Positions 4,088-41,470 are shown, counted from the stretch's first letter. The stretch is DNA of 43,773 nt from Patescibacteria group bacterium (GCA_022705905.1 JAKJDO010000005.1:1-43773); one strand, 5' to 3'. Numbers and translations are program-made. Notes: generated from the sequence alone by a model not told the origin.

Positions 4088-5458
4088 ATGTCTAGAAAAA
4101 TAAATAAAAAAGTTATTGAAAAAGATTTAAAAAAAGAAAAGGATTTTAGAGTCAGGAGAAGTGAAAAATATAGTCGCTTGCGCGGCATGAAAGATATTCT
4201 TTTTGACGAATATAAGTATTGGAATTTAGTCTTAAAGAAGGCGACGGATTTATCCGCTACTTATAGTTTCAGCCATATTGACACGCCGATTTTAGAAAAG
4301 TTGGATTTATTTGAAAGATCAACCGGTAAGGAAACCGACATCGTTTCTAAAGAGATGTATAATTTTATTGACAAGAGCGGCGATCGCGTGGCTCTACGAC
4401 CAGAAGCTACGCCCGGTTTAGTACGCGCTTATGTTGAACACGGCATGTTTAACTTGCCGCAACCAGTCAAAATGTTTTGGTTAGGGCCTTTATTTCGGCA
4501 CGAAAAACCGCAATCAGGCAGACTGCGCCAGTTTAACCAATACGATCTGGAAATGTTTGGCGATCCTAGTCCGGTAGCCGACGCCCAACTGATTTTAGTC
4601 GCTTATAATTTTTTTAGCGAATTGCAAATCGATGTCCAGATACAAATCAACAGTATCGGCTGCAAAGAGTGCCGAACGGAATATGGAAAAAAATTGCTAG
4701 ATTATTATAAAGAAAGAGGCAAGCGCGCAAAGTTATGCGTTGACTGCAAAAAACGTATTACAAAAAACCCGATGCGCCTTTTGGATTGCAAGGAGCCATC
4801 TTGCCAATCGGTCAGAGAGGACGCCCCGCAGATAGTTGATTTTCTGTGCGATGGTTGTCGAGAACACTTTATAAAAGTATTAGAATATTTAGATGAATTA
4901 GATATCCCATATAATTTAAACCCTTTTTTAGTGAGAGGATTGGATTATTATAACCGCACCGTATTTGAAATTTTTACCGTTGGTGAAGAAGAAGCAGACG
5001 CCGACAAAAGACAGTCGGCTTTGGGCGGCGGCGGCCGTTATGACGAACTAGTTGAATTGATGGGCGGACGTCCAACGCCAGCTTGTGGTTTTGGTATTGG
5101 CTTAGAGAGGGTCATTAATAAAATAAAAGAAAAAAATATTCCGATTAAGGAAGATAAAGAGAATTTCATTTTTTTAGCGCAGCTGGGCGATCAGGGCAAG
5201 CGCAAAGCCTTCGCTTTATTTGAAGAATTGCGCAAGGCCGGTTTTAAAATCAGACAAGCTTTTACCAAAGACAGTTTAAAGACTCAGCTAGAGGAAGCAG
5301 ACAGAGCCGGCGCTAAGTATACTTTGATTTTAGGGCAGAAAGAACTTTTAGACGGTACGATAATTTTGCGTGATATGGAGTCGGGCACGCAAGAAGTGGT
5401 TGATTATAAAAAAATTATTTTTGAATTAAATAAAAGAATAGAAGGAAATAAGAATTAA
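4088..5458 (+). CDS. hisS: Histidine--tRNA ligase
   Basis: RGMKD, LRPEATPG, RHEKPQSGRLRQFNQ, LVRGLDYYNRTVFE, GGGRYD and FGIGLER motifs plus an anticodon-binding domain. Confidence 0.97.
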   Translation: MSRKINKKVIEKDLKKEKDFRVRRSEKYSRLRGMKDILFDEYKYWNLVLKKATDLSATYSFSHIDTPILEKLDLFERSTGKETDIVSKEMYNFIDKSGDRVALRPEATPGLVRAYVEHGMFNLPQPVKMFWLGPLFRHEKPQSGRLRQFNQYDLEMFGDPSPVADAQLILVAYNFFSELQIDVQIQINSIGCKECRTEYGKKLLDYYKERGKRAKLCVDCKKRITKNPMRLLDCKEPSCQSVREDAPQIVDFLCDGCREHFIKVLEYLDELDIPYNLNPFLVRGLDYYNRTVFEIFTVGEEEADADKRQSALGGGGRYDELVELMGGRPTPACGFGIGLERVINKIKEKNIPIKEDKENFIFLAQLGDQGKRKAFALFEELRKAGFKIRQAFTKDSLKTQLEEADRAGAKYTLILGQKELLDGTIILRDMESGTQEVVDYKKIIFELNKRIEGNKN

Positions 5459-5478
5459 TCTTTTAGTCATCTAGAAAT

Positions 5479-5485
5479 GGAGGTG
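5479..5485 (+). promoter_or_regulatory. Strong Shine-Dalgarno sequence (GGAGGTG) of rpsU
   Basis: GGAGGTG ends 4 nt before the ATG at 5490. Confidence 0.85.
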
Positions 5486-5489
5486 TCTT

Positions 5490-5726
5490 ATGGTAGAATT
5501 CAAAAGAAAAAAAGGCGAAAGTTTTGAAAGTTTTTTAAGACGTTTCAATAAAGCCTTAATTCAAAGCCGCAAGCTGAATGAAGTCCGACAGCGACAGTGG
5601 CAAAAAAAATCAAAAAACAAGAACCAGCAAAAGAAATATGCTTTAGTCAGCAAGCAGATGAGAGAGAAGAAAGAGTATCTAAGGAAGACGGGCAAATTAA
5701 AAGAAGAAACTAAAAATCGTTGGTAA
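5490..5726 (+). CDS. rpsU: 30S ribosomal protein bS21 with C-terminal extension
   Basis: Basic 78-aa protein with the RKKGESFESFLRRF bS21 signature; adjacent to yqeY as in Firmicutes. Confidence 0.85.
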   Translation: MVEFKRKKGESFESFLRRFNKALIQSRKLNEVRQRQWQKKSKNKNQQKKYALVSKQMREKKEYLRKTGKLKEETKNRW

Positions 5727-5781
5727 TATAAAAGCGGGCAATCGCGAAATCTCGAGGTTGCTCTCTTTAATAAAAATTGAT

Positions 5782-6246
5782 ATGTCGACTTTACATAATC
5801 AGGTCAATGAAGACTTAAAAAACGCTATGCGCAATAAGCAGGAGTTGGAATTGTCAACTTTAAGGATGTTAATAGCCGCTTTGAAAAATAAAAAAATCGC
5901 TTTGGGTGGCGGCACTAATGTTGACGAATTAACTGATGAGCAGTTTATCGAAACAGTAGCTACGGAGATAAAAAAACGTAAAGACTCGAAAGAAGCTTAT
6001 GAACAAGGCGGTCGTCAGGATTTAGCTGACAAGGAAATAGCGGAAATAAAAATTTTAGAAAAGTATATGCCGGCGCAATTGTCTGACGAAGAGATTGAAG
6101 CGGCTGTAAAGGATGTAGTTAGCTCTATAGGTGAAGTTACTCAAGCTGATTTCGGAAAAGTAATGGGACAGGCGATAGGCAAGTTAAAAGGTAGGGCCGA
6201 CGGAGGCAAAGTAACGGAAATAGTAAAAAAGGTTTTAGCAAAATAA
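5782..6246 (+). CDS. yqeY: GatB/YqeY domain protein
   Basis: DLKNAMRNK..LSTLRML, IKKRKDSKEAYEQGGRQDLADKE, YMPAQLS, GKVMG and GRADG motifs. The ATG at 5782 is preferred over the TTG at 5758. Confidence 0.9.
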   Translation: MSTLHNQVNEDLKNAMRNKQELELSTLRMLIAALKNKKIALGGGTNVDELTDEQFIETVATEIKKRKDSKEAYEQGGRQDLADKEIAEIKILEKYMPAQLSDEEIEAAVKDVVSSIGEVTQADFGKVMGQAIGKLKGRADGGKVTEIVKKVLAK

Positions 6247-8179: not shown

Positions 8180-9925
8180 ATGAAATCTCTTGTAAAAAAT
8201 AGAATAGGATTGACAGCGTTTTTGGTTGCCGCTGTTTTGTTGTTTTCATTTTTTTCGGCTTTAACGGTCTGGGGGCAAACGGATTTAGGATTAAATGAAG
8301 CTGGCGCTATCGGTCTACCTAGTTCTGACGGTCGAGATATAAAAACGTTATTAGTAGATATCGTCAAATACTTGCTTAGTTTTTTGGGAATGGTAGCAGT
8401 TGTAATTATTATGTATGCCGGCTGGCTGTGGATGACGAGCGGCGGTAATCAATATCAGCTGGAAAAAGCTAAAAAAACTTTAATAAATGCGACAATTGGT
8501 CTTATTATTATAGTTTTATCTTTTATGATCGTTGCTTGGGTGTCAAATTGGATTACTAGCACCATCAATTATAGGGGGTCAAGCAGCCGGGGGTCTTCTA
8601 GTGGAGTCGGTCTGGCTACCGCAGGCAATACTGCTATTGAGTCTCATTATCCTGCCCGAGATCAAAGAGATGTTCCGCGCAACACTCGTATAGTCGTTAC
8701 TTTCCGAGAGCCGATTAGAGTCGAAGATATTATAGAAGCTGGCCGTGTTAACACCGATAACGTCAAAATATTTAAGACAGTTGAAGATAATACCAGGCTT
8801 CATTCACCCAACTTGACTGCCGTAACTACTGATGGCCGCACTTTCCGTTTTGCGCAAGAAGAGCCGTTTATGGGCAGCCCATCGGAAAACTTTTGGTACA
8901 CAGTGGAATTGACAAGTAATATATATAAAGCCAATGGTGATCGTCTGTTTAGTATAGGTGGCGGCTATTCTTGGCAGTTTGAGTTAAGCACCGCAATTGA
9001 TAACGAGCCTCCAAAAATTGCCAGTTTTATACCTCGTATTAATGCTATTGAGCCTAGGAACGTCGTTATTCAAATCAACTTTAACGAAGCAATAGACCCG
9101 ATTACTGCTATGGGCGAAGCCCCCGCTTTTGATAATATTCAAGTTAATAGCGGCTCTATGTTAGCTGGTGAGTTTTATATCTCTAATCAATATCGCACGG
9201 TGGAATTTTTAACAACTGACCAATGCGGCGTTAATTCTTGCGGCCACCCTGTTTATTGTCTGCCAGCCGACAGCAATATTCGCACAACTGTTTTAGCAGC
9301 CACCTTAGATAATCCTGGTTCCGGCAGTGCTTACTCAAGCGCTATTGACGGCATTGTTGATATGGCTGGCAATTCTTTAGACGGTAACAACAACAATATC
9401 GCCGAAGGACCGACTTCTCAAAATGGTTTGCCTGCTTACGACGCTAATAATCCGACAGTCGCCTCAACCAGTGATAACTTTTCTTGGCTTTTTAGCACTA
9501 ATAACAATGTTGATATTACTGAGCCGAGAATAAACAGCATCAATCCTAACGCTTCTTATAACGATACAAATGTTGATGTTCGTGAAATACCTTTCGCTGT
9601 TTTTAACAAGTTGATATTAAGTAGCAGCTTAAAAAAGATAGAAACAATTTCGTTAAGAGCTAATCCGACTGCCAGCGAAGTTTTTTATTGGCTGACGTCT
9701 GCTAACGAACCAGCTGTTAATCCAAATCAAACAAGGGTATTTTTGAACCACAGACAGTTTGTTAATACAGTTAATTCAACCTACGCTCCTTTGTTTACTT
9801 CCGGCATTTTAGACATTTATCAAAATTGTTTTTATCCCAGTGGAGGACTTTCTTGCACCGCCAGCCCGGGCACAGGTTTTCCTTATTGTTGCAATGGAGC
9901 TTTGGCGACAGATTGCGACCCTTAG
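8180..9925 (+). CDS. VirB2/TrbC-like pilin domain fused to bacterial Ig-like (Big_5-type) repeats; surface protein
   Basis: Signal-like N-terminus, then a pilin helical hairpin (YLLSFLGMVAVVIIMYAGWLWMTSGGN..EKAKKTLINATIGLIII), then P-x-x-x-x-x-VPRNTRIVVTFREPI and PRNVVIQINFNEAID Ig-like repeats. Confidence 0.8.
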   Translation: MKSLVKNRIGLTAFLVAAVLLFSFFSALTVWGQTDLGLNEAGAIGLPSSDGRDIKTLLVDIVKYLLSFLGMVAVVIIMYAGWLWMTSGGNQYQLEKAKKTLINATIGLIIIVLSFMIVAWVSNWITSTINYRGSSSRGSSSGVGLATAGNTAIESHYPARDQRDVPRNTRIVVTFREPIRVEDIIEAGRVNTDNVKIFKTVEDNTRLHSPNLTAVTTDGRTFRFAQEEPFMGSPSENFWYTVELTSNIYKANGDRLFSIGGGYSWQFELSTAIDNEPPKIASFIPRINAIEPRNVVIQINFNEAIDPITAMGEAPAFDNIQVNSGSMLAGEFYISNQYRTVEFLTTDQCGVNSCGHPVYCLPADSNIRTTVLAATLDNPGSGSAYSSAIDGIVDMAGNSLDGNNNNIAEGPTSQNGLPAYDANNPTVASTSDNFSWLFSTNNNVDITEPRINSINPNASYNDTNVDVREIPFAVFNKLILSSSLKKIETISLRANPTASEVFYWLTSANEPAVNPNQTRVFLNHRQFVNTVNSTYAPLFTSGILDIYQNCFYPSGGLSCTASPGTGFPYCCNGALATDCDP

Positions 9926-9959
9926 GGATTTAGCTATTTTTTACAAAATTTTAAATAAA

Positions 9960-12623
9960 ATGTTGAGAATATATAAAACTAAGAAGTATCTCGTTTTTTT
10001 TGTCTTGTCTGTTTTTTTAATGGTTGCTTTTAAGTTTGTTCAGGCGCAAGATCTGGGCTTAAATGAAGCGGCCGGTTTAGGCCTGCCATCAGCCGGCGCC
10101 ACTGATCCGAGGTTGTTTGTCATTAATGTTGTTCGTTTCATTTTAGGATTTTTAGGCGTCGTTGCCACAATTATTATTTTATATGGCGGTTGGCTATGGA
10201 TGACTAGCGCCGGGGAACTGATGCGAGTGCAAAAAGCTAAAAAAACTTTAATCGCCGCTATTATCGGTTTGATTATCATTATTGCCGCCTTTGCCATAGT
10301 TTCTTTTGTTGCTAATTTTATGAGAGATACTATTGGCAGCGGCACTTCCTCCGGTTTATGCGACCCTCCTTGTCTGGCTGGACAGTGCTGTTGCAGCGGC
10401 GTTTGCCAGAGCTGTCCTTGCGGTTCGCTTACGCCTACCGGCAGCAGCTTTAGGTTGCGAAGCACTTCGCCGGTAGCTAATGCCATTAATCAGCCCAGAA
10501 ATGTCATAGTTAGAGCTTTTTTGAGCCGTCCGGCCGCGCCATCTGTCGATGATATACTCAGTAGCAATTTTATTTTACGAAGAATAGGTGACATTAATCC
10601 AGGAACAGGAGATTTTATTGACGGACCGGATACTGATGTTAACGGTATTGTTTCCACCTCATCTAATCGTACGATTTTGAATTTTACTCCTAGCGACAAT
10701 TTAGACTCGTGGTCAAGATACCAGGTGGTAATTGATGGTTCTACTAGTATGAACCCCGTAGACCATATAATCGATTTTGACGGCAATCGCTTGACTTGCG
10801 GTTTGCCGGCGCCTTGTAATTTTACTTTTGACACTAACGATTTAATAGATGCAGCTGTGCCAACCGTCCGCATTATACCAACTCAAATTTGCTATGACGA
10901 CGGCACTTTATCGCCCGGTTCTAATATTATTGGTGGCTGGGGTAGGGATGATACGGGCATTTCCTTTTTACGGGCTTATTATGAGATGCCCCATGTTAAT
11001 ATTTTTGATGTTGTCGGTACTGGCAATCGCTATCAATATGCCCAAAATGTGGTTGATACTAGCGGCATGACAGTCGGTGATGTTTACACTTTTACAGTAG
11101 AGGCCGACGATTTAGTTTTAAATACTGAAGCTGACAGTTTTGAAGCAACTATTAGAGCCGGTCATTGTTGCAACGACCAGCGCGATTTAGACGAAGAGGG
11201 TGTTGATTGTGGCGGCGCGGACTGCGATTCATGCGCCAGCATGAATCCAATTATTACTAATTTGTCTCCTGATAACGGCGCTCCGGGTAATTTTATTACT
11301 ATAATGGGGCGCTATTTTGGCATGACGCCCGGGCGAGTTTATTTTTCCAATGCGGCCGGTGATTTAGTGGTAGAGGCGCAACTTCCCAATACTGTAAATC
11401 CAAATTGCAATAATAATTGGAGTAACAATCAAATCGTGGTAGTTGTCCCCGGAGGAGCGGCTACTGGCCCGATTATGGTTGAAAGGAGTGACGGACGTTC
11501 AGACACAACTGCCGCAGACAGCGAGCCATATATTAATTTTGAAGTTAACACCATAGCTCGTCCCGGCCTTTGTCTAGCAAATCCTAATACCGGATTTTTT
11601 AATACCGAATTTGATTTGCATGGCATCGCCTTCGGCGGCACAAACCGCTATGTTCGTTTTGGTAATGAATCCGACTATATTACCGCTAACAACATGCACG
11701 ACTGGACAAATCTTTTTGTTAGCGCTCAGGTTCCTAATATCACTCGTGGCTTAGCAACGGTTTATGCTAATATTGATACTGTTAATTCTAACTTTTTATA
11801 TTTTATAGTTCAGCAAGACACCGATAATAACCCAGTAATTGATTATATTGATCCGCCGCAAGGCCCTAACAACCAGTATATTACTATTTATGGCAGCGGT
11901 TTTATGAGTTATCAGCCGGGCGTTAGTCAGGTTAGTTTTACTAATTTTGGCACCGGAGAAACTACCGCCGCTGGCATTGATTTTCCGGTAGAATGTCGTA
12001 ATAGTTGGTGGCGCGCCAGCTATATTACAGTAAAGGTCCCGGCCACAGTAGCTAACGGTAATTATCAAGTGAGAGTAACCAATAGAGCGAACAATACCAG
12101 TGAACCAGAAAATTTTAATATTATCGCCGGCACTCCGACGCCAGGTATTTGTTTGTTGTCGCCGCATAATGGGCCAGTGGGAACAGCGGTTAATATTTAT
12201 GGTGATAATATGGGTTCTACTCCAGGGACGGCTATATTCTATAATAATGTTTCTGTAACGCCTGCTGCTAGTGAATGGAGACAGCAATTAGTTGCAGCTT
12301 CGGTTCCAGCTGGAGCGGTAACGGGCCCGGTAGTTATTAGCAACGGTGCCAATAGCAATGGTCTTCCTTTTACAGTTGGCAGCTGCACTAGCAACGGCGA
12401 TTGTGAAAGCGGCGAAGAATGTTGCGGTTCGGGTTCGTCTTGGTCGGGTATTTGCCGAAACGTTGGCACTTGCGTTGGCGCTGGTTTTACATCCACTGCT
12501 TTTGGTTGGACTTTTTCTACTGCTTCAGCAGCGACGGCGGAGAATGCTCGGGCGTTTATCCGGCCTGTTCCGATCCTAACGAATTTTGCGATCCTGATTC
12601 CGATTGTACTTGCCAGCCTCTGA
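9960..12623 (+). CDS. Pilin-anchored giant surface protein, 5' part (pilin + Big_5 + three IPT/TIG-like repeats + Cys-rich segments)
   Basis: Same DLGLNEA + pilin hairpin as the upstream gene; PIITNLSPDNGAPGNFITIMG, PVIDYIDPPQGPNNQYITIYG and LLSPHNGPVGTAVNIYG TIG-like starts. The ATG at 9960 is preferred. The true frame appears to be lost near 12521-12545. Confidence 0.75.
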   Translation: MLRIYKTKKYLVFFVLSVFLMVAFKFVQAQDLGLNEAAGLGLPSAGATDPRLFVINVVRFILGFLGVVATIIILYGGWLWMTSAGELMRVQKAKKTLIAAIIGLIIIIAAFAIVSFVANFMRDTIGSGTSSGLCDPPCLAGQCCCSGVCQSCPCGSLTPTGSSFRLRSTSPVANAINQPRNVIVRAFLSRPAAPSVDDILSSNFILRRIGDINPGTGDFIDGPDTDVNGIVSTSSNRTILNFTPSDNLDSWSRYQVVIDGSTSMNPVDHIIDFDGNRLTCGLPAPCNFTFDTNDLIDAAVPTVRIIPTQICYDDGTLSPGSNIIGGWGRDDTGISFLRAYYEMPHVNIFDVVGTGNRYQYAQNVVDTSGMTVGDVYTFTVEADDLVLNTEADSFEATIRAGHCCNDQRDLDEEGVDCGGADCDSCASMNPIITNLSPDNGAPGNFITIMGRYFGMTPGRVYFSNAAGDLVVEAQLPNTVNPNCNNNWSNNQIVVVVPGGAATGPIMVERSDGRSDTTAADSEPYINFEVNTIARPGLCLANPNTGFFNTEFDLHGIAFGGTNRYVRFGNESDYITANNMHDWTNLFVSAQVPNITRGLATVYANIDTVNSNFLYFIVQQDTDNNPVIDYIDPPQGPNNQYITIYGSGFMSYQPGVSQVSFTNFGTGETTAAGIDFPVECRNSWWRASYITVKVPATVANGNYQVRVTNRANNTSEPENFNIIAGTPTPGICLLSPHNGPVGTAVNIYGDNMGSTPGTAIFYNNVSVTPAASEWRQQLVAASVPAGAVTGPVVISNGANSNGLPFTVGSCTSNGDCESGEECCGSGSSWSGICRNVGTCVGAGFTSTAFGWTFSTASAATAENARAFIRPVPILTNFAILIPIVLASL

Positions 12624-15600
12624 ACGATACAGCGGATAGTTGTCGGGGCAGATCAGCCAGAACTAATCGTTGCGATCCGTTTGTTTGTCCTAATTCTCCC
12701 GGCACCTGCTCGCCTTATACTGCCACCGGCTATCAAGTACTAGACGGATTTGCTTGCGATGATTCTTGCGCTGGCGTTGCTAATTGTGGTGTTGCTTGTA
12801 ATTATGTTGATAGCTTGGACTCTTGTGTTTTAACTGATAGATTTTGTACTCGGATAGAATACGATATATTTGGCCGGGAAATTGTCGCAACTTGCGCGGC
12901 TTACGGTTCTAGCGGTGAATATCGCTGGCAAATTTCAACCACAGTTGACTGTCCGTCCGGTTGGCTGAATATCGGCAGAAACCGTTGTGTTAATTTAACA
13001 GAAACTTGTCTGCCTTGTCCTAATAATTTTATTTGTCGGGATTATGATAATGACAGTCAAGGAGATTGTGTGGCCAATCGAAGAATGTGTGTTGGGACTT
13101 CGCATTGTATCGGCACGCAGTGCGTAGTATCCGACCGGAACTCTTGCGAATGTTGTTGCAGTATATCGCAAAATAATCTCGACGGCACGAACCCTTCTTG
13201 TTGCGCACCATTGACTTGTGAAGGCAATTGCGGCTCCGACGCTTCCGGAGTTGATACCGATACTTATGGTTTTTGTTCCGGTTGCGCGTCTGCTTCCGAT
13301 CCGGACTCTGCTTGTAATTGTGAAGGGCATAGCGGTAAGTATTGTGATACAACAACCAATCCGGCTGGAATTTGTCTTGATTGCGCCGCTTTAAATTCTA
13401 CCGAATGCACCAACCACGACGCTTGTTGTGTTGATGTTCAGAGCGGCGACGCTTGTCGCGGCGTAGGTGTTGATGGTCAGAGAAATATTAATGGTACTTG
13501 CGCTTATTATTCTTGCGAAATCAGCGGTCCGGACGCTAATTGTGTAGCTGGCGAAACGGGAGCTTATAAAACTTTAGCTAGATGTGAAGGTAGATGCGTC
13601 GGTTCAGCGGACATTCCAATTGGCCAAAGATGCCTTAGTTTGTCGCCTGTTTATAGTTGCACTTCCGGCATAAACAATTGCGGCGTTTATGATTGCATCA
13701 GCAACGATTTGGGTTCTGACTGCCGCTGTTGTTGCGATCCTAATAATAATACCTGTCCCAGCGGCTTGGATTGCACCCCCAAAGAGCCTTGCGATAGTCC
13801 GGCCGGTAATCGCGGCATATGTTGTGGCTGTGTTAGCAATGATCAATGCTATGGCGGCGGTTTTCAAGGCTGCGGCACAGACTCTTGCTGCCACGAAAGA
13901 CCTCAAATCAGCGAAGTATTTCCAATTGACGAGCAGGAAAACGTTTGCCGCAACACCTTGATAAGAGCCACTTTCAACCAAAGAATGAATATCCAAAGTT
14001 TTACCGGTAATATTATATTATTGGGAGATTATGAAGATTCTCCTTGCCCCGCTGGAACGACTTATTTAGCGCTAGAGGCGCCTCATCGCAATCAATTGTC
14101 CCAGTTTATTAATAAAATAAGAAGATCTTTTCATAGGCTTTTAGCTTTTGTTTGGCCACAGCCGACGGCTTTTGCCCAATTTAACCCCGAACCAGGCCGT
14201 AGTTATTGTGCGGTTAGAGGCGTTACTACCGGCTATAACGATGTTTCTGATAATGGGGTTTTAGAATTTAAATTAAGTTCCGTCCTTGATCCTAATAGAG
14301 TCTATTTCGCCATAGTTAGAGGCGACAGAAATTTGGATAATCAGCAAGGAGTAATAAGCTTTTGGGGGATAGGCATGAACGATATTACTTATGACGGACA
14401 ACCGGAAATGGTTACTTTTAACGGCATTGCTTATTATCGCTCTTCTATCTGGGCTTTCCGTACAGGCGATGATATTTGCGAGTTGAATAGCGTATCTATT
14501 GATCCCGCTAGCTATTTATTTACTACAGCTAATACAGCAGCTACGTTTATTGCCGAGCCACGTTCGTCTGACGGACAGATTTTAATTGGTAAACCGGGAG
14601 TTTATGAATGGACTTGGAATTGGCGTTCCAGCAAGCCATCAGTTGTCGTTGTGAGCAATGACGGCGGTCCCGATTCAATCCAAACAGTTACTTCACAAAA
14701 TGTTCAGGATGACAGGACTGTAATAAGTGCCACAGCTAGCGTTGTCGGCCAAAGTCGTTCCCGAACAGGTCAGTCTAATGTTTATGTTTTCTTGTGCGAA
14801 AATCCTTGGCCAGCTAGGAATAGCGATGGTTCTTGGGCGCCATGGCGCGATCAGGCAGGCAACTGCATTGCTGGTTCCGGCGATTGCACTAATAGTTATA
14901 ATTACGAATTGTATTATTGCCGAGACAGCGGTCGCGCGGGCACCTTTGACGATTTACCTCCGCTTTTAGGAACCACTTCAACCCCGCCAGTTATTCGCGG
15001 TCGATCTTCAACCACCTTGAAAGAGGCATATTTTTTCCGTGAGAATGTGCCGACCGCTACTACCAGCTTAACAATCGTAGATGATGGTACGGGCAATAGC
15101 GTGACCGCTAACTGGATAGCTGTGCCCGAAGTTAGTTTGACTAATTATCGCGTTTATTGGGGAACTGCTTCCGGCAACTATTCAAATAATCGAGAACTGC
15201 CCAACACAGCTAATACTTTCCAAGTGACTGGCTTACAGCCAGGAACTAGATACTACTTCCGCCTCACGGCGATTTATTCAGATAATCGGGTGGAAACTGA
15301 TTTATATAATGAAATTAGTATCGTTCCTAGAGACACCACTCCGCCCGACTTTCCAACTAACTTTACAGCCGCTACAACTACAATTAGCGGCGAGATTAGG
15401 CTTAGCTGGGACGCAGTGAATGGAGCCGTGAGCTACAATATTTATTACGGCACTACTTTAGGAGTTTATGGCACTTCGCGCAATGTTGGCAATATAACCA
15501 GCGTGATTTTATCAGGATTAAGATCAGACAATTCTTATTATTTTTCTGTTAGCGCTGTTGACGCGGCCGGAAACGAAAGTAGTCCTTCCGCGATTTCGGC

Positions 15601-15625
15601 TGGACCAATTTCTCCCAGTCCTTAA
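12521..15625 (+). CDS. Pilin-anchored giant surface protein, 3' part (very Cys-rich region + Big_5 + two FN3 domains); probably joined to 9960 by a frameshift
   Basis: No credible start or signal peptide; dense Cys motifs, PQISEVFP..ENVCRNTLIRATFN, and two FN3-like repeats (ANW..YRVYWGT..GLQPGTRYYF; LSWD..YNIYYGT..GLRSDNSYYFSVSAVD). Confidence 0.7.
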   Translation, partial: CFSSDGGECSGVYPACSDPNEFCDPDSDCTCQPLNDTADSCRGRSARTNRCDPFVCPNSPGTCSPYTATGYQVLDGFACDDSCAGVANCGVACNYVDSLDSCVLTDRFCTRIEYDIFGREIVATCAAYGSSGEYRWQISTTVDCPSGWLNIGRNRCVNLTETCLPCPNNFICRDYDNDSQGDCVANRRMCVGTSHCIGTQCVVSDRNSCECCCSISQNNLDGTNPSCCAPLTCEGNCGSDASGVDTDTYGFCSGCASASDPDSACNCEGHSGKYCDTTTNPAGICLDCAALNSTECTNHDACCVDVQSGDACRGVGVDGQRNINGTCAYYSCEISGPDANCVAGETGAYKTLARCEGRCVGSADIPIGQRCLSLSPVYSCTSGINNCGVYDCISNDLGSDCRCCCDPNNNTCPSGLDCTPKEPCDSPAGNRGICCGCVSNDQCYGGGFQGCGTDSCCHERPQISEVFPIDEQENVCRNTLIRATFNQRMNIQSFTGNIILLGDYEDSPCPAGTTYLALEAPHRNQLSQFINKIRRSFHRLLAFVWPQPTAFAQFNPEPGRSYCAVRGVTTGYNDVSDNGVLEFKLSSVLDPNRVYFAIVRGDRNLDNQQGVISFWGIGMNDITYDGQPEMVTFNGIAYYRSSIWAFRTGDDICELNSVSIDPASYLFTTANTAATFIAEPRSSDGQILIGKPGVYEWTWNWRSSKPSVVVVSNDGGPDSIQTVTSQNVQDDRTVISATASVVGQSRSRTGQSNVYVFLCENPWPARNSDGSWAPWRDQAGNCIAGSGDCTNSYNYELYYCRDSGRAGTFDDLPPLLGTTSTPPVIRGRSSTTLKEAYFFRENVPTATTSLTIVDDGTGNSVTANWIAVPEVSLTNYRVYWGTASGNYSNNRELPNTANTFQVTGLQPGTRYYFRLTAIYSDNRVETDLYNEISIVPRDTTPPDFPTNFTAATTTISGEIRLSWDAVNGAVSYNIYYGTTLGVYGTSRNVGNITSVILSGLRSDNSYYFSVSAVDAAGNESSPSAISAGPISPSP

Positions 15626-27359: not shown

Positions 27360-28292
27360 ATGTTTTTCAGTACAGTCACTATTATCGTCGGTTTGTGCAT
27401 TTTTGAAATTATTTGTAGCGTTGATAATGCTATTATCAACGCTAACGTTTTAAAAACCATGCCCGACAAATACCGCAAAATATTTTTGTTTTGGGGTATT
27501 TTGTTTGCAGTTTTTGTCGTGCGCGGTCTTTTACCATTTTTGATTATTTGGATAGCCAATCCAGAAATGCCAATAAAGGAAATTATAATGTCAGCTTTTT
27601 CCAGTTCTAGCCACATGGGAGAGTATTTGAACGAATCAAAGCCCCTGTTGCTTTTAGGCGGCGGTGTTTATTTGTTTTTTGTTTTTCTTGGCTGGCTGTT
27701 TCTCGAGGAAAAAAAGTATGCATTTTTAGCCGAGCACTTTATTCATCGTCAAGGCGTTTGGTTTTATGCCTGCGCTTCTCTTTTTACCACTTTAGTGGTT
27801 TATATATCGCTTAAAATTAACCCTATTTTGGCTTTAGCGGCCACTATTGGCGTGTCTGCTTTTTTTATTACTGACGGTTTTAAAAAAAATGCCGAGGAAA
27901 AAGAAAAAGAGCTTGTTTCCGGGAATATGAGTTCATGGAGCAAGATTTTATATTTAGAGGTGCTGGACACATCTTTTTCAATTGATGGGGTGATTGGCGC
28001 CTTCGCTTTTACCCTGTCTGTTCCCCTGATTATTCTCGGCAATGGTTTGGGTGCTTTTATTGTTCGCGAGCTGACTATTAGAGGCATAGATACAATTGCT
28101 AAATTCGCTTATTTAAAAAATGGCGCCATGTATTCCATTGGCATTTTGGGTAGCATCATGATTTTAGAAAGCTTCGGGGGACATTTTCCTTTTTGGCTAG
28201 CTCCGTTAACGACAGTGTCATTGCTTAGTTTGTTTTTATTTTTATCTTGCCGGGAAATGCGCAAAGAAGAGAAGTTGGTTGTCGCAAAATAA
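27360..28292 (+). CDS. DUF475 / TerC-like integral membrane protein
   Basis: FEIICSVDNAIINA, WGILFAVFVVRGLLP, LEVLDTSFSIDGVIGAFA and YLKNGAMYSIG motifs. Confidence 0.85.
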   Translation: MFFSTVTIIVGLCIFEIICSVDNAIINANVLKTMPDKYRKIFLFWGILFAVFVVRGLLPFLIIWIANPEMPIKEIIMSAFSSSSHMGEYLNESKPLLLLGGGVYLFFVFLGWLFLEEKKYAFLAEHFIHRQGVWFYACASLFTTLVVYISLKINPILALAATIGVSAFFITDGFKKNAEEKEKELVSGNMSSWSKILYLEVLDTSFSIDGVIGAFAFTLSVPLIILGNGLGAFIVRELTIRGIDTIAKFAYLKNGAMYSIGILGSIMILESFGGHFPFWLAPLTTVSLLSLFLFLSCREMRKEEKLVVAK

Positions 28293-28300
28293 AATTAGCT

Positions 28301-29398
28301 ATGGAAAATTTATTAAAAAATTTAGAAGGATTGCGAGAGAAAGCAATTGCCGCAACGGACTTATTAGCGATTGAACGCAAGCGAGTTGAGTTGATGGAAT
28401 TGAAAAAAGCGGCTAGCCAGCCAAATTTTTGGGACGATCAGACTAGGGCGATTGAAACTAATAAGAAGATTGAAGAACTGGACAGTGAAATAAATACTTG
28501 GGATAAATTTCTGCAAGAAGTCCGCGAATTAGAAGAACTAGTAGCTGTAGCCAACAAGGAGGGGGATAGTTCGATTGCTGAAGAAGCCGATAAAAAGTAT
28601 GAGGAGTTAAAAAAAGAATTAATAAAGTTAGAATTTTACATTTTATTTTCTAAAGAATATGACCGCAGTAACGCTATTTTATCAATACACGCCGGCACGG
28701 GCGGAGTTGACGCGCAAGACTGGGCGGAAATTTTAGAGCGAATGTATTTGCGGTTTGCGGAAAAGAAAAAATGGAAGGTGGAATTAGTTGATCGGACTGT
28801 CGGCAATGAAGCTGGCATAAAAAGCGCGACTTATCGGATCAATGGCAGTTGGTCTTATGGCTATTTGCAAAGCGAAAATGGCGTCCATCGTTTAGTGCGC
28901 ATTTCACCGTTTGACGCCGAGGCTATGCGCCACACTTCTTTCGCTCTAGTAGAAGTTATTCCGGAAATGCCGGAGGCGGTTGAAGTAGAAATTAAAGACG
29001 AAGACTTACGCATTGATGTTTTTCGTTCTTCCGGACCTGGCGGCCAAAGCGTCAATACAACCGATTCAGCTGTGCGTATTGTCCATAAGCCGACCAACAT
29101 TGCTGTCACCTGCCAAAGCGAACGTTCACAACACCAGAATAAGGAAAATGCTTTAAAAATTTTAAAGTCAAAATTATATCAGAAACAAATTGAAGAGCGA
29201 GAAAAAGAGGAACTAAAAATGCGTGGCGAAGCGCAAAAAGCGGAATGGGGCAAGCAGATTCGGTCGTATGTAATGCAACCTTATAAAATGGTTAAAGATC
29301 ACCGCACTGATTTTGAAACGCAAGATATCGACGGCGTATTGGATGGGAATTTGGAATCGTTCGCTGAAGCGTATTTGCGATGGATAAAAAGAGTTTAG
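28301..29398 (+). CDS. prfB: Peptide chain release factor 2 (no programmed frameshift)
   Basis: AGTGGVDAQDWA, GVHRLVRISPF (SPF anticodon mimic), SSGPGGQSVNTTDSAVR and QIRSYV motifs; one continuous frame from the ATG at 28301. Confidence 0.97.
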   Translation: MENLLKNLEGLREKAIAATDLLAIERKRVELMELKKAASQPNFWDDQTRAIETNKKIEELDSEINTWDKFLQEVRELEELVAVANKEGDSSIAEEADKKYEELKKELIKLEFYILFSKEYDRSNAILSIHAGTGGVDAQDWAEILERMYLRFAEKKKWKVELVDRTVGNEAGIKSATYRINGSWSYGYLQSENGVHRLVRISPFDAEAMRHTSFALVEVIPEMPEAVEVEIKDEDLRIDVFRSSGPGGQSVNTTDSAVRIVHKPTNIAVTCQSERSQHQNKENALKILKSKLYQKQIEEREKEELKMRGEAQKAEWGKQIRSYVMQPYKMVKDHRTDFETQDIDGVLDGNLESFAEAYLRWIKRV

Positions 29399-35472: not shown

Positions 35473-36135
35473 ATGAACATATTAGCTCGTTACGTCCCTT
35501 TCTACAATGGGGACACCAAAAATTTGTTCTTTGCAACGGTTAAAAAATATTTTCCCATGAAAGCCCAATATTCCCGCGTTATGAATGAGCACGATGAAGT
35601 TGAGGCGGCTTTTAATGAAGCTGGTATTATTAGGTTCAGCGGTGAATCATATGTTACGCATCTGGAGAGAGTATCTCTGATCAACATAGACACTCGCGTT
35701 AGAAGCCGTGGACGATATAGCCTAAACTATACGGATGTAATATTTACCCTGCATCATGACACGCTAGAAGACCTTGAAGGTCTTAATGGCTATAATCTCG
35801 GTTTTTTCAAAAGGGAGTTTGGTGAAGATTTTGCCATTGATCTTTTGTCAGTTTCCAATACTAAGGTTGATGGTAGATTTTTTAAAGACAAGATGGCTGC
35901 CGAAGCAGACACCTATCGACGAGTGGTCGCCAGTCGGGTAAGGTCGCAAATTTGTAAATTATGTGATCGTCTCGATTTTTTTATCGACTATCATAGCGTA
36001 TCAAGAGAGGCGACAGACGATAAAATCGCCAAAACAAGGCTGTATTTAATGGATGTAGCGTGGAGACTTAACGTTTTGCCATGCGAGCTAGAAATGGCTA
36101 TGTTGATAGCCGAGGGGAGGGTGAAGCCCATTTAG
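35473..36135 (+). CDS. Stand-alone HD-domain protein, small alarmone hydrolase (SAH/Mesh1)-like
   Basis: RFSGESYVTHLERV, LHHDTLED and KLCDRL match the RelA/SpoT hydrolase motifs; AAGGAG SD; downstream hairpin at 36136-36170. Confidence 0.7.
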   Translation: MNILARYVPFYNGDTKNLFFATVKKYFPMKAQYSRVMNEHDEVEAAFNEAGIIRFSGESYVTHLERVSLINIDTRVRSRGRYSLNYTDVIFTLHHDTLEDLEGLNGYNLGFFKREFGEDFAIDLLSVSNTKVDGRFFKDKMAAEADTYRRVVASRVRSQICKLCDRLDFFIDYHSVSREATDDKIAKTRLYLMDVAWRLNVLPCELEMAMLIAEGRVKPI

Positions 36136-40792: not shown

Positions 40793-41470
40793 ATGGAAGA
40801 CCAGGGCAACAGCCGCATAGTTAATTGTCTTGATGAAGGTATCTTAATATCGCTTGAAGAGGGGGATGTTTCTTTTGAAGAGTATGCCAAGATCGTTGAT
40901 CATTGCATGTCATGCAGAATCTGCGCTCAAGTATTTGCAGGTAGGGAGCGGGAAATTAGAGGACGGCGTCCGCAAGCAGTTCCCATCTTTGCCCTGAATG
41001 CTCCGTCGAGGTTCGGTTGTTTGACGGTTGAAGAAATTGTTCATTTTAAATCAAATCACCAACGAATGTCAAAAATCTACACCGATTATGTTGTTACGCA
41101 TAGTTGCTCATGTCCAAGGTGTTATGAAATAAGCTATCAATTGAAAGGTTTTGAGGCCAGCGATGACATGGACCACTCCTTTGTTTGTATACCTTTACGT
41201 TCCGTGGTGAACGATTTAATGCTGAAGCAGATTGTAGGAGATGATGGCTTTAGATCTATATGCTTAGATTTGGAATGCGAGATGTACGAACTTTTTGGTA
41301 AAAAAATCGAAATCGTTGATTTTTGCGATTATGCTTACCAAATAGGCGTTACCGAATCTAAGGCTGTGCTATTGGATTATCGTGGAAGTGATGTTGCTGG
41401 TAAGCGATTTCGAGTGAGCCTTGTTGAATATGAGGAGGGGGCATATTGCGAAGACATATCTTCATTCTGA
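40793..41470 (+). CDS. Hypothetical protein with two HxxxCxxC (zinc anti-sigma-like) motifs
   Basis: HCMSCRIC and HSCSCPRC, each preceded by a similar helix; AAGGAG SD; downstream hairpin at 41485-41509. Confidence 0.65.
   Translation: MEDQGNSRIVNCLDEGILISLEEGDVSFEEYAKIVDHCMSCRICAQVFAGREREIRGRRPQAVPIFALNAPSRFGCLTVEEIVHFKSNHQRMSKIYTDYVVTHSCSCPRCYEISYQLKGFEASDDMDHSFVCIPLRSVVNDLMLKQIVGDDGFRSICLDLECEMYELFGKKIEIVDFCDYAYQIGVTESKAVLLDYRGSDVAGKRFRVSLVEYEEGAYCEDISSF

Follow-up and report, generated by a model that had tools for sequence, protein, structure and literature searches.

Why should a single ribosomal protein gene carry a strong Shine-Dalgarno (SD) sequence in a bacterial genome whose core genes otherwise begin without one? 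The question is raised by rpsU, the gene for ribosomal protein bS21, on a 43,773-nt stretch of DNA (hereafter the window) from a Patescibacteria group bacterium (GCA_022705905.1, JAKJDO010000005.1:1-43773), which is contig C7 of a 0.95-Mb assembly that is 99% complete and has 38% G+C. A preliminary description of this window had noted GGAGGTG ahead of rpsU and proposed a feedback loop like that of Bacteroidia, in which the anti-SD of 16S rRNA is occluded by bS21 and neighboring proteins, and rpsU keeps a strong SD that ribosomes free of bS21 can read. We find that the motif is part of a longer, conserved element that very probably pairs directly with the 16S tail, and that is best classed as a Patescibacteria variant of the rpsU/bS21 circuit known from Bacteroidota, with the mechanism proposed by analogy.

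The GGAGGTG lies at 5479-5485 and is followed by a 4-nt spacer and an ATG, as first described, but that description understated it: the motif is only the 3′ half of the element, and complementarity to 16S rRNA runs upstream to 5471. The whole extended SD, CTAGAAA-T-GGAGGTG (15 nt, 5471-5485, on the plus strand like every feature of this locus given below), complements the 16S 3′ tail 5′-CACCUCCUUUCUAG-3′ with one extra base. Its helix-1 arm, GGAGGTG (5479-5485), is predicted to pair with the anti-SD core CACCUCC at -13.1 kcal/mol when scored against CACCUCCUUU (the core-SD free energy, dG), and its helix-2 arm, CTAGAAA (5471-5477), complements UUUCUAG, the extreme 3′ end of the 16S gene. The duplex is broken between them by an unpaired, bulged T (5478), a base whose identity and position vary in relatives. 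Scored against the full 16S tail GAUCACCUCCUUUCUAG (the full-tail dG), the rpsU leader forms a duplex of -21.4 kcal/mol with arms of ~7 bp each around the bulge. The spacer, TCTT (5486-5489), puts T at position -1, as is usual for starts of this genome. In the same assembly, 16S rRNA is encoded at C16:2355-3840 on the minus strand; the gene ends in ...GGATCACCTCCTTTCTAGGGAG, in which CCUCC is retained, and its terminus, ...GGATCACCTCCTTTCTAG, is the canonical anti-SD.

Across the assembly, we called 894 genes with our own simple dicodon-model caller and scored the 863 starts (translation-initiation regions, TIRs) that were scorable; in this genome-wide ranking by full-tail pairing, rpsU came 3rd of 863. 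We assembled a set of 51 ribosomal protein (r-protein) genes identified by Pfam and added infC, nusG, and ssb; of these, rpsU alone has an SD. None of the other r-protein genes has one (0/50), and the remaining members of the set pair at -6.8 kcal/mol or weaker at their likely starts, mostly at ~0, including the genes for bS18 (-1.1 kcal/mol) and bS6 (-1.0 kcal/mol). Window genes other than rpsU nearly all have A/T-rich leaders, with core-SD energies of +2.9 to -5.3 kcal/mol at the first start, and this agrees with the SD-less leaders that the preliminary description had assigned to all the genes it named. The starts themselves show a strong bias: T stands at -1 in 73% of all genes, rising to 92% in r-protein genes, and A is frequent from -2 to -6 (for example, at window 5489, 4087, and 3503). 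This is a Kozak-like signal whose details differ from the Bacteroidia pattern.

SD sequences are used elsewhere in this genome by a minority of genes. GGAGG at SD spacing precedes ~4.5% of gene starts versus 0.3-0.5% expected by chance, and four-base SD cores precede ~7.5% versus 3-4%. Two such genes lie in the window, each with an AGGAG-type SD of about -9 kcal/mol: one at 35473-36135 (aaaggagaagggg directly before the ATG), encoding a small protein with an HD domain and weak similarity to RelA/SpoT, and one at 40793-41470 (ggaaggagaagaaa, likewise before ATG), encoding a 225-aa protein without a family match; both are outside core housekeeping. Besides rpsU, ~44 genes are strongly SD-led. 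These have a G+C content of 0.40-0.58 (versus 0.38 for the genome) and a median codon score of 0.16 versus 0.31 per residue, many are small orphans, and they sit on contigs C13, C16 (62-89 kb), C18 (29-65 kb), C30, C32, C37, and C42. Those with a family match encode hydrolases, radical-SAM proteins, type IV secretion system (T4SS) pilin/PrgI, DUF559, NUDIX, HD, and MBL proteins and the like, and none of these family-matched genes belongs to the core translation machinery. By sequence, they are a distinct accessory class that uses an SD ignored by the core genome. The earlier statement that rpsU is the only housekeeping gene with a strong SD is thus right, but it would not hold for genes at large, because these SD-led accessory genes exist. 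At C13:64985-65011, CTAGAAAGGAG stands directly before the ATG codons of a 186-aa open reading frame (ORF) and is the same 11-nt 16S-end complement as in rpsU leaders; the product resembles a GNAT acetyltransferase by eye only, no family search having been made. The release factor 2 (RF2) gene of the window, prfB (28247-29398), was considered as an independent read-out of anti-SD use during elongation and set aside as uninformative, because its reading frame runs through unbroken and lacks the SD-dependent +1 frameshift site that such genes usually have.

We compared 150 rpsU leaders from relatives, 73 from the organism's own family and order (26 of the order's families), 62 from the rest of the class (~60 further families), and 15 from other classes, and found the element in 72/73, 59/62, and 11/15 of them, respectively. 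The expectation that the rpsU SD would be conserved in relatives is therefore borne out. Pairing totals a median of 14 bp and -20 kcal/mol in the family and order, and 13-14 bp and -19 to -20 kcal/mol across the class. In a matched control with a full-tail threshold of -13 kcal/mol, 100%, 94%, 88%, and 79% of rpsU leaders passed at the level of family, order, class, and phylum, versus 4%, 1%, 6%, and 0% of neighbor genes of the same loci. The commonest form in the family and order is CTAGAAAGG-N-AGGTG, in which the extra base is of variable identity and is placed after AGAAA, AGAAAG, AGAAAGG, or AGAAAGGA; some leaders have one or two mismatches in its place, such as CTAGAA[TC]GGAGGTG and TAGATCGGAGGTG, and 15 of the 62 leaders from the rest of the class are uninterrupted. 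Total complementarity is maintained while the position and identity of the bulge drift, and A-to-G changes opposite U are tolerated with retention of G.U pairs (loci L014 and L017). Four independent metagenomes yielded DNA contigs with one and the same sequence over 5380-5800.

Leaders also follow changes in the rRNA. Among 52 genomes for which we could pair a 16S tail with an rpsU leader, the readable tails mostly have the canonical CACCUCC core, and five have a variant core. In G037, the 16S gene has CACUUCC and the leader GGAAGU (-15.4 kcal/mol with its own tail versus -11.2 with the canonical one); in G443, 16S CAUCUCC is matched by the leader AGAAAGGAGAUG with 12 perfect pairs (-20.5 versus -18.1 kcal/mol); and in G289, which also has CAUCUCC, the leader is GAAAGAGAUGA (-12.6 versus -7.9 kcal/mol). 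The gain on the own over the canonical tail is 2.4-4.7 kcal/mol in these three genomes, and the G-to-A changes in helix 1 of rpsU track the C-to-U changes of the variant 16S genes. In G052, the 16S tail has CUAA and the leader TTAGA in place of CTAGA, which hints that pairing between rRNA and mRNA reaches the last 16S nucleotides. Because leaders compensate variant anti-SDs, selection for direct rRNA-mRNA pairing is well supported by these comparisons. None of the three outcomes that the preliminary description had named as fatal to its proposal was encountered: SDs are not widespread among r-protein genes, the rpsU SD is not absent from relatives, and the anti-SD is not lost.

The gene behind this leader (5490-5726, ATG at 5490) encodes a divergent 78-aa bS21. 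Taken alone, the ORF scores below curated cut-offs (17 versus 27 bits for Pfam S21, PF01165; 19.9 versus 28.95 for TIGR00030). We nevertheless assign it to bS21, because it is the only S21-like ORF in the 99%-complete genome, its 491 homologs are of equal length and many are named ribosomal protein S21 (Candidatus Falkowbacteria, Parcubacteria), a profile of 44 orthologs finds 22 different bS21 chains among solved ribosome structures (best E = 1.2e-7, residues 4-67), and it is placed between hisS and a GatB/YqeY-domain gene. The family occurs in 21/25 genomes of the Genome Taxonomy Database (GTDB) family, 185/201 of the order, 291/301 of the class, and 196/251 of a phylum sample. An AlphaFold2 (AF2) model with a predicted local distance difference test (pLDDT) score of 85 has helices at residues 12-26, 28-36, and 44-67, and the long C-terminal helix (44-67) bears conserved Tyr63, Leu64, and Lys66, with Tyr63 conserved in >90% of the order. 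The C-terminal extension with a Tyr that had been pointed out therefore exists as a segment with Tyr63, although it is an extension mainly relative to the 55-residue Pfam domain and a slight one relative to the 71-aa PDB chains. In two relatives (loci L118 and L152), the rpsU frame seems to have a non-standard start, CTG in one and an SD abutting the sole GTG in the other, which suggests that some rpsU genes use unusual start codons. Elsewhere in the assembly, bS6 (C18:10274-10768) has a Glu/Lys-rich C-terminal extension of ~65 aa, and long low-complexity extensions are also found on uS10, uS11, uS5, uL22, uL23, and uL3, among the r-protein genes of C32/C34.

The element has a close counterpart in Bacteroidota. 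Autoregulation of bS21 has been described in Bacteroidota that include Flavobacterium johnsoniae (Jha et al. 2021, PMC7797042; McNutt et al. 2023, PMC9976891; Nucleic Acids Research (NAR) 2026, PMC13000453 and PMC13000457). According to this literature (PMC7797042, PMC9976891, PMC13000457), the anti-SD is sequestered by bS21, bS18, and bS6; rpsU alone has an extended SD of 9-13 bp (dG -14 to -21), ranks top among r-protein genes, and covaries with alternative anti-SDs; ribosomes free of bS21 initiate faster on rpsU; and a 13-bp helix would not fit sterically beside the bS21 C-terminal helix. The genome studied here has the same features in outline: it is SD-poor with a canonical anti-SD, rpsU is its sole r-protein gene with an SD, rpsU pairing falls in a common range of -13 to -23 kcal/mol and extends up to the 3′-terminal 16S nucleotides, the element is lineage-wide and covaries with variant anti-SDs, and other starts are A-rich and Kozak-like. 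It differs in its phylum, Patescibacteria or candidate phyla radiation (CPR), in a Falkowbacteria-like lineage where the element is at least class-wide, and in its bS21, a divergent 78-aa protein whose C-terminal domain is basic. Two of the Bacteroidota papers (PMC7797042, PMC9976891) do not mention Patescibacteria or candidate phyla, a limited text search of the 2026 structure paper (PMC13000457) found no such mention either, a survey of CPR ribosomes (PMC9297842) contains nothing on rpsU leaders, and full-text literature searches returned no paper linking CPR, bS21, and SD. That survey also describes 16Gap5, a 16S region missing in CPR, Bacteroidetes, and Chlorobi, which we set aside as unrelated, since it is the tip of helix 44 (h44).

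By analogy with this system, we propose that bS21 controls its own synthesis through a feedback loop in which 30S subunits lacking bS21 preferentially translate rpsU, and we place the probability of this reading at roughly 55%. GGAGGUG very probably pairs with CACCUCC and CUAGAAA with UUUCUAG, with one unpaired base between, so that nearly the whole single-stranded 16S tail is engaged. Ribosomal and nearly all other core genes initiate without an SD, by way of A-rich leaders with U at -1, and full-tail pairing would make translation of rpsU uniquely dependent on a free 16S tail. If bS21 sits beside or on that tail, as the Bacteroidota ribosome would predict, 30S subunits bearing bS21 may be unable to accommodate the very long helix or to free their tail, and bS21-free subunits would preferentially translate rpsU because they can. 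Scarcity of bS21 would then let bS21-free subunits build up and produce more bS21, and rpsU translation would drop once all subunits are filled. The start codon of rpsU is GTG in nearly half of orthologs, and such weak starts would fit a regulated start.

Several observations weigh against this reading, and the first group concerns the state of the anti-SD. Full-tail energies of -13 kcal/mol or below occur in 39 TIRs versus 10-17 in mock windows, so SDs are enriched rather than depleted, and two TIRs pair more strongly than rpsU. In Flavobacteriales, by contrast, SDs are depleted relative to mock windows, whereas here SD-led, GC-rich accessory genes stand beside an SD-less core. Because SD motifs are enriched at this accessory minority, the anti-SD seems usable and, judging from the genome, is probably not simply “blind” as in Flavobacteriales. 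We find the Bacteroidia-like loop, as first proposed, supported in part, through the SD-less r-protein genes and the conserved and covarying pairing. The helix itself also differs: in Bacteroidota it is 9-13 consecutive pairs, whereas here it consists of two arms with a 1-nt bulge or one or two mismatches in ~97% of close relatives (a bulge or internal loop in 71/73 family and order leaders, with a median longest run of 9). The last one or two helix-2 pairs, and the CUAG pairing, assume a long mature rRNA ending in ...CCUUUCUAG or beyond, and none of the metatranscriptome contigs in which we sought the mature 16S 3′ end spans the last 170 nt of 16S.

Exceptions in relatives, the protein, and the analogy itself count on the same side. 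Two genomes (G059 and G396) have a canonical 16S tail yet an rpsU without an SD, one family (G564, G586, and G639) and G541 lack the rpsU SD with 16S tails that are unreadable, and two of the five variant genomes (G049 and G033) have altered leaders that are ambiguous by energy and were not counted. The pocket signature of Bacteroidota comprises bS21 Tyr54 with a less basic C-terminal domain, bS18 K37, F50, N56, and Q58, and W100 and R103 in the C-terminal helix of bS6. Here the C-terminal domain of bS21 is still basic, with an isoelectric point (pI) of ~10.5, Tyr63 lies ~9 residues farther from the KP(S/T) region than F. johnsoniae Tyr54 does, and no counterparts of the signature residues could be assigned, because the profile search against structures in the PDB returned no identifiable F. 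johnsoniae bS21 chain. Gene starts rest on a home-made, simple caller. Sequestration of the anti-SD, the preference of bS21-free subunits, and the equivalence of the two tyrosines are inferred by analogy with Bacteroidota. Finally, the sign of the bS21 effect is not given, because S21 of Escherichia coli is said to promote, not block, SD pairing.

Metatranscriptomes provide a view of rpsU expression. In four of them (sludge and anaerobic digesters), we found contigs restricted to rpsU, covering 5437-5721, 5438-5588 plus 5614-5764, 5507-5702, and 5444-5671, and in none of the four did contigs cover the 3′ part of hisS or yqeY. Because the contigs span rpsU and not these neighbors, they suggest a separate, more abundant rpsU transcript with a ~50-nt leader that holds the element. 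Contig starts at 5437, 5438, and 5444 (three runs from three studies), within the hisS 3′ end, tentatively place the likely 5′ boundary of this transcript at 5437-5444, and no convincing sigma-70 promoter or terminator emerged ahead of these contig starts when the region around rpsU was scanned. The upstream neighbor hisS (histidine-tRNA ligase, 4088-5458; TIGR00442, E = 1.8e-135) has an SD-less leader (dG -2.4), as does the downstream gene for a GatB/YqeY-domain protein (5782-6246, ATG at 5782, dG +0.6), which has weak GatE C-terminal matches. Within rpsU, an A8 run at 5594-5601 has one extra A in the metatranscriptome contigs of run X25 and two in those of run X28, with A8 in the four DNA metagenomes; the additional bases may stem from slippage during transcription, or from errors of assembly at low depth or of reverse transcription. 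Farther along the window, ORFs at 9840-12623 (927 aa) and 12419-15625 (1068 aa) lie on the same strand in different frames and overlap by 204 nt, which may reflect genuine overlap, a second ORF that starts later than called, or a frameshift.

The main rival to the feedback loop is a constitutive strong ribosome-binding site (RBS) without feedback, in which an ancestral long SD of the Firmicutes type (AAAGGAGGUGA) has been retained simply to keep translation efficient on an mRNA that is very short and perhaps monocistronic. We consider it unlikely, though the best of the alternatives. An rpsU that apparently has its own short transcript would suit it, as would SD pairing that seems usable, given ~40 other SD-led genes, and long SDs are normal in some Gram-positive lineages, according to a Staphylococcus aureus study (PMC13009471). 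The extended SDs of Firmicutes described there likewise form a helix longer than the E. coli norm with a 16S tail of CCUCCUUUCUA type, but long SDs are a genome-wide rule in that group, whereas here one is found on a single core gene of an SD-less core genome. Efficiency does not readily explain why no other highly expressed r-protein gene has kept its SD, including those for the equally short L34, L36, L35, L33, and S18, nor why complementarity continues up to the terminal rRNA nucleotides, far past the needs of efficient initiation. The interruption is moreover conserved, weak GTG starts are common, and where this pattern is already known, in a single lineage, it serves feedback. Retention of an ancestral long SD would account for the element as well as an independent origin would.

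It is improbable that another trans-acting regulator works at this leader instead of, or besides, 16S rRNA, either as a small RNA mimicking the anti-SD or as free bS21 binding to the leader alone or to a leader:RNA duplex. One candidate RNA was present in the assembly, an intergenic GCGC hairpin resembling helix 45 (h45) and followed by GGATCACCTCCTT (C18:55219-55389, minus strand, locus L233/L234), which could have been an anti-SD mimic or an rRNA fragment. It was not found by DNA search in 120 genomes of the order and belongs to no Rfam family, and we dropped it as a regulator. Covariation in rpsU leaders follows the 16S gene itself. The leader also lacks conserved intramolecular structure and any Rfam match: an Rfam scan returned only noise (GOLLD, E = 0.32), across 118 leaders the SD did not pair consistently with other parts of the leader, the small hairpin of the window is not conserved, and in a leader folding test the SD had a mean pairing probability of 0.55 versus 0.45-0.47 in the flanks. 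Like the rRNA-mimic leaders of the S15, S4, L20, and L1 genes, the rpsU leader is conserved and lineage-specific and may plausibly balance protein supply against rRNA. Unlike them, it complements rRNA rather than resembling it, which takes it outside classical mimicry of a protein-binding site; neither a conserved fold nor an Rfam family is associated with it, and the sensor here would be the occupancy state of the ribosome, not free protein on the mRNA.

Slightly less probable still is a loop of opposite sign, in which bS21 exposes the anti-SD, bS21-replete ribosomes work best on rpsU, and the long SD serves another purpose, such as tying bS21 output to the number of active ribosomes. This would follow E. 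coli, where the biochemistry of S21 reportedly goes back to van Duin and Wijnands in 1981, a work cited in PMC9723584, and the bS21 studied here keeps a basic C-terminal domain like that of proteobacterial bS21. Positive feedback would not be homeostatic, however, and the SD-poor core genes, the lone rpsU exception, and the extended helix match Bacteroidota rather than E. coli. A chance match or gene-calling artifact, which our home-made caller and the sub-cut-off single-sequence S21 scores might have raised, is for practical purposes refuted by a motif that stands at the same position in >130 independent genomes and covaries with 16S, by identical DNA in four metagenomes, and by the match of the family profile to solved bS21 chains.

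Negative feedback by bS21 through the 16S tail thus remains our preferred reading, and a broader form of it, which we regard as doubtful, would divide the ribosomes of the class, and perhaps of much of the phylum, into two populations. Here, bS21-replete 30S subunits would translate SD-less core mRNAs, and bS21-free subunits would read rpsU, through its bulged ~14-bp helix, together with the GC-rich accessory genes, so that bS21 occupancy would switch the cell globally between expressing core and accessory genes. The break in the helix would then be a structural determinant, either a kink that fits the platform or an enforced clash with the C-terminal helix of bS21. Such a link would bear on the puzzling GC-rich, SD-led accessory genes in CPR genomes.

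The feedback reading predicts where the mature 16S 3′ end lies, that the helix and bS21 are incompatible, and that the bulge has a role. “Specialized ribosomes” lacking bS21 have so far been documented in one phylum, Bacteroidota, and if a similar circuit operates in Patescibacteria, it may be one that SD-independent bacteria adopt generally, or it may be ancient. According to the CPR survey (PMC9297842), bS21 is “frequently absent” from Parcubacteria, and a subgroup has lost the anti-SD motif; the sub-cut-off scores of the bS21 described here indicate that standard hidden Markov models (HMMs) under-detect the protein in this group. Pairing with rpsU, in turn, offers a reason for the retention of the anti-SD in SD-poor CPR lineages.
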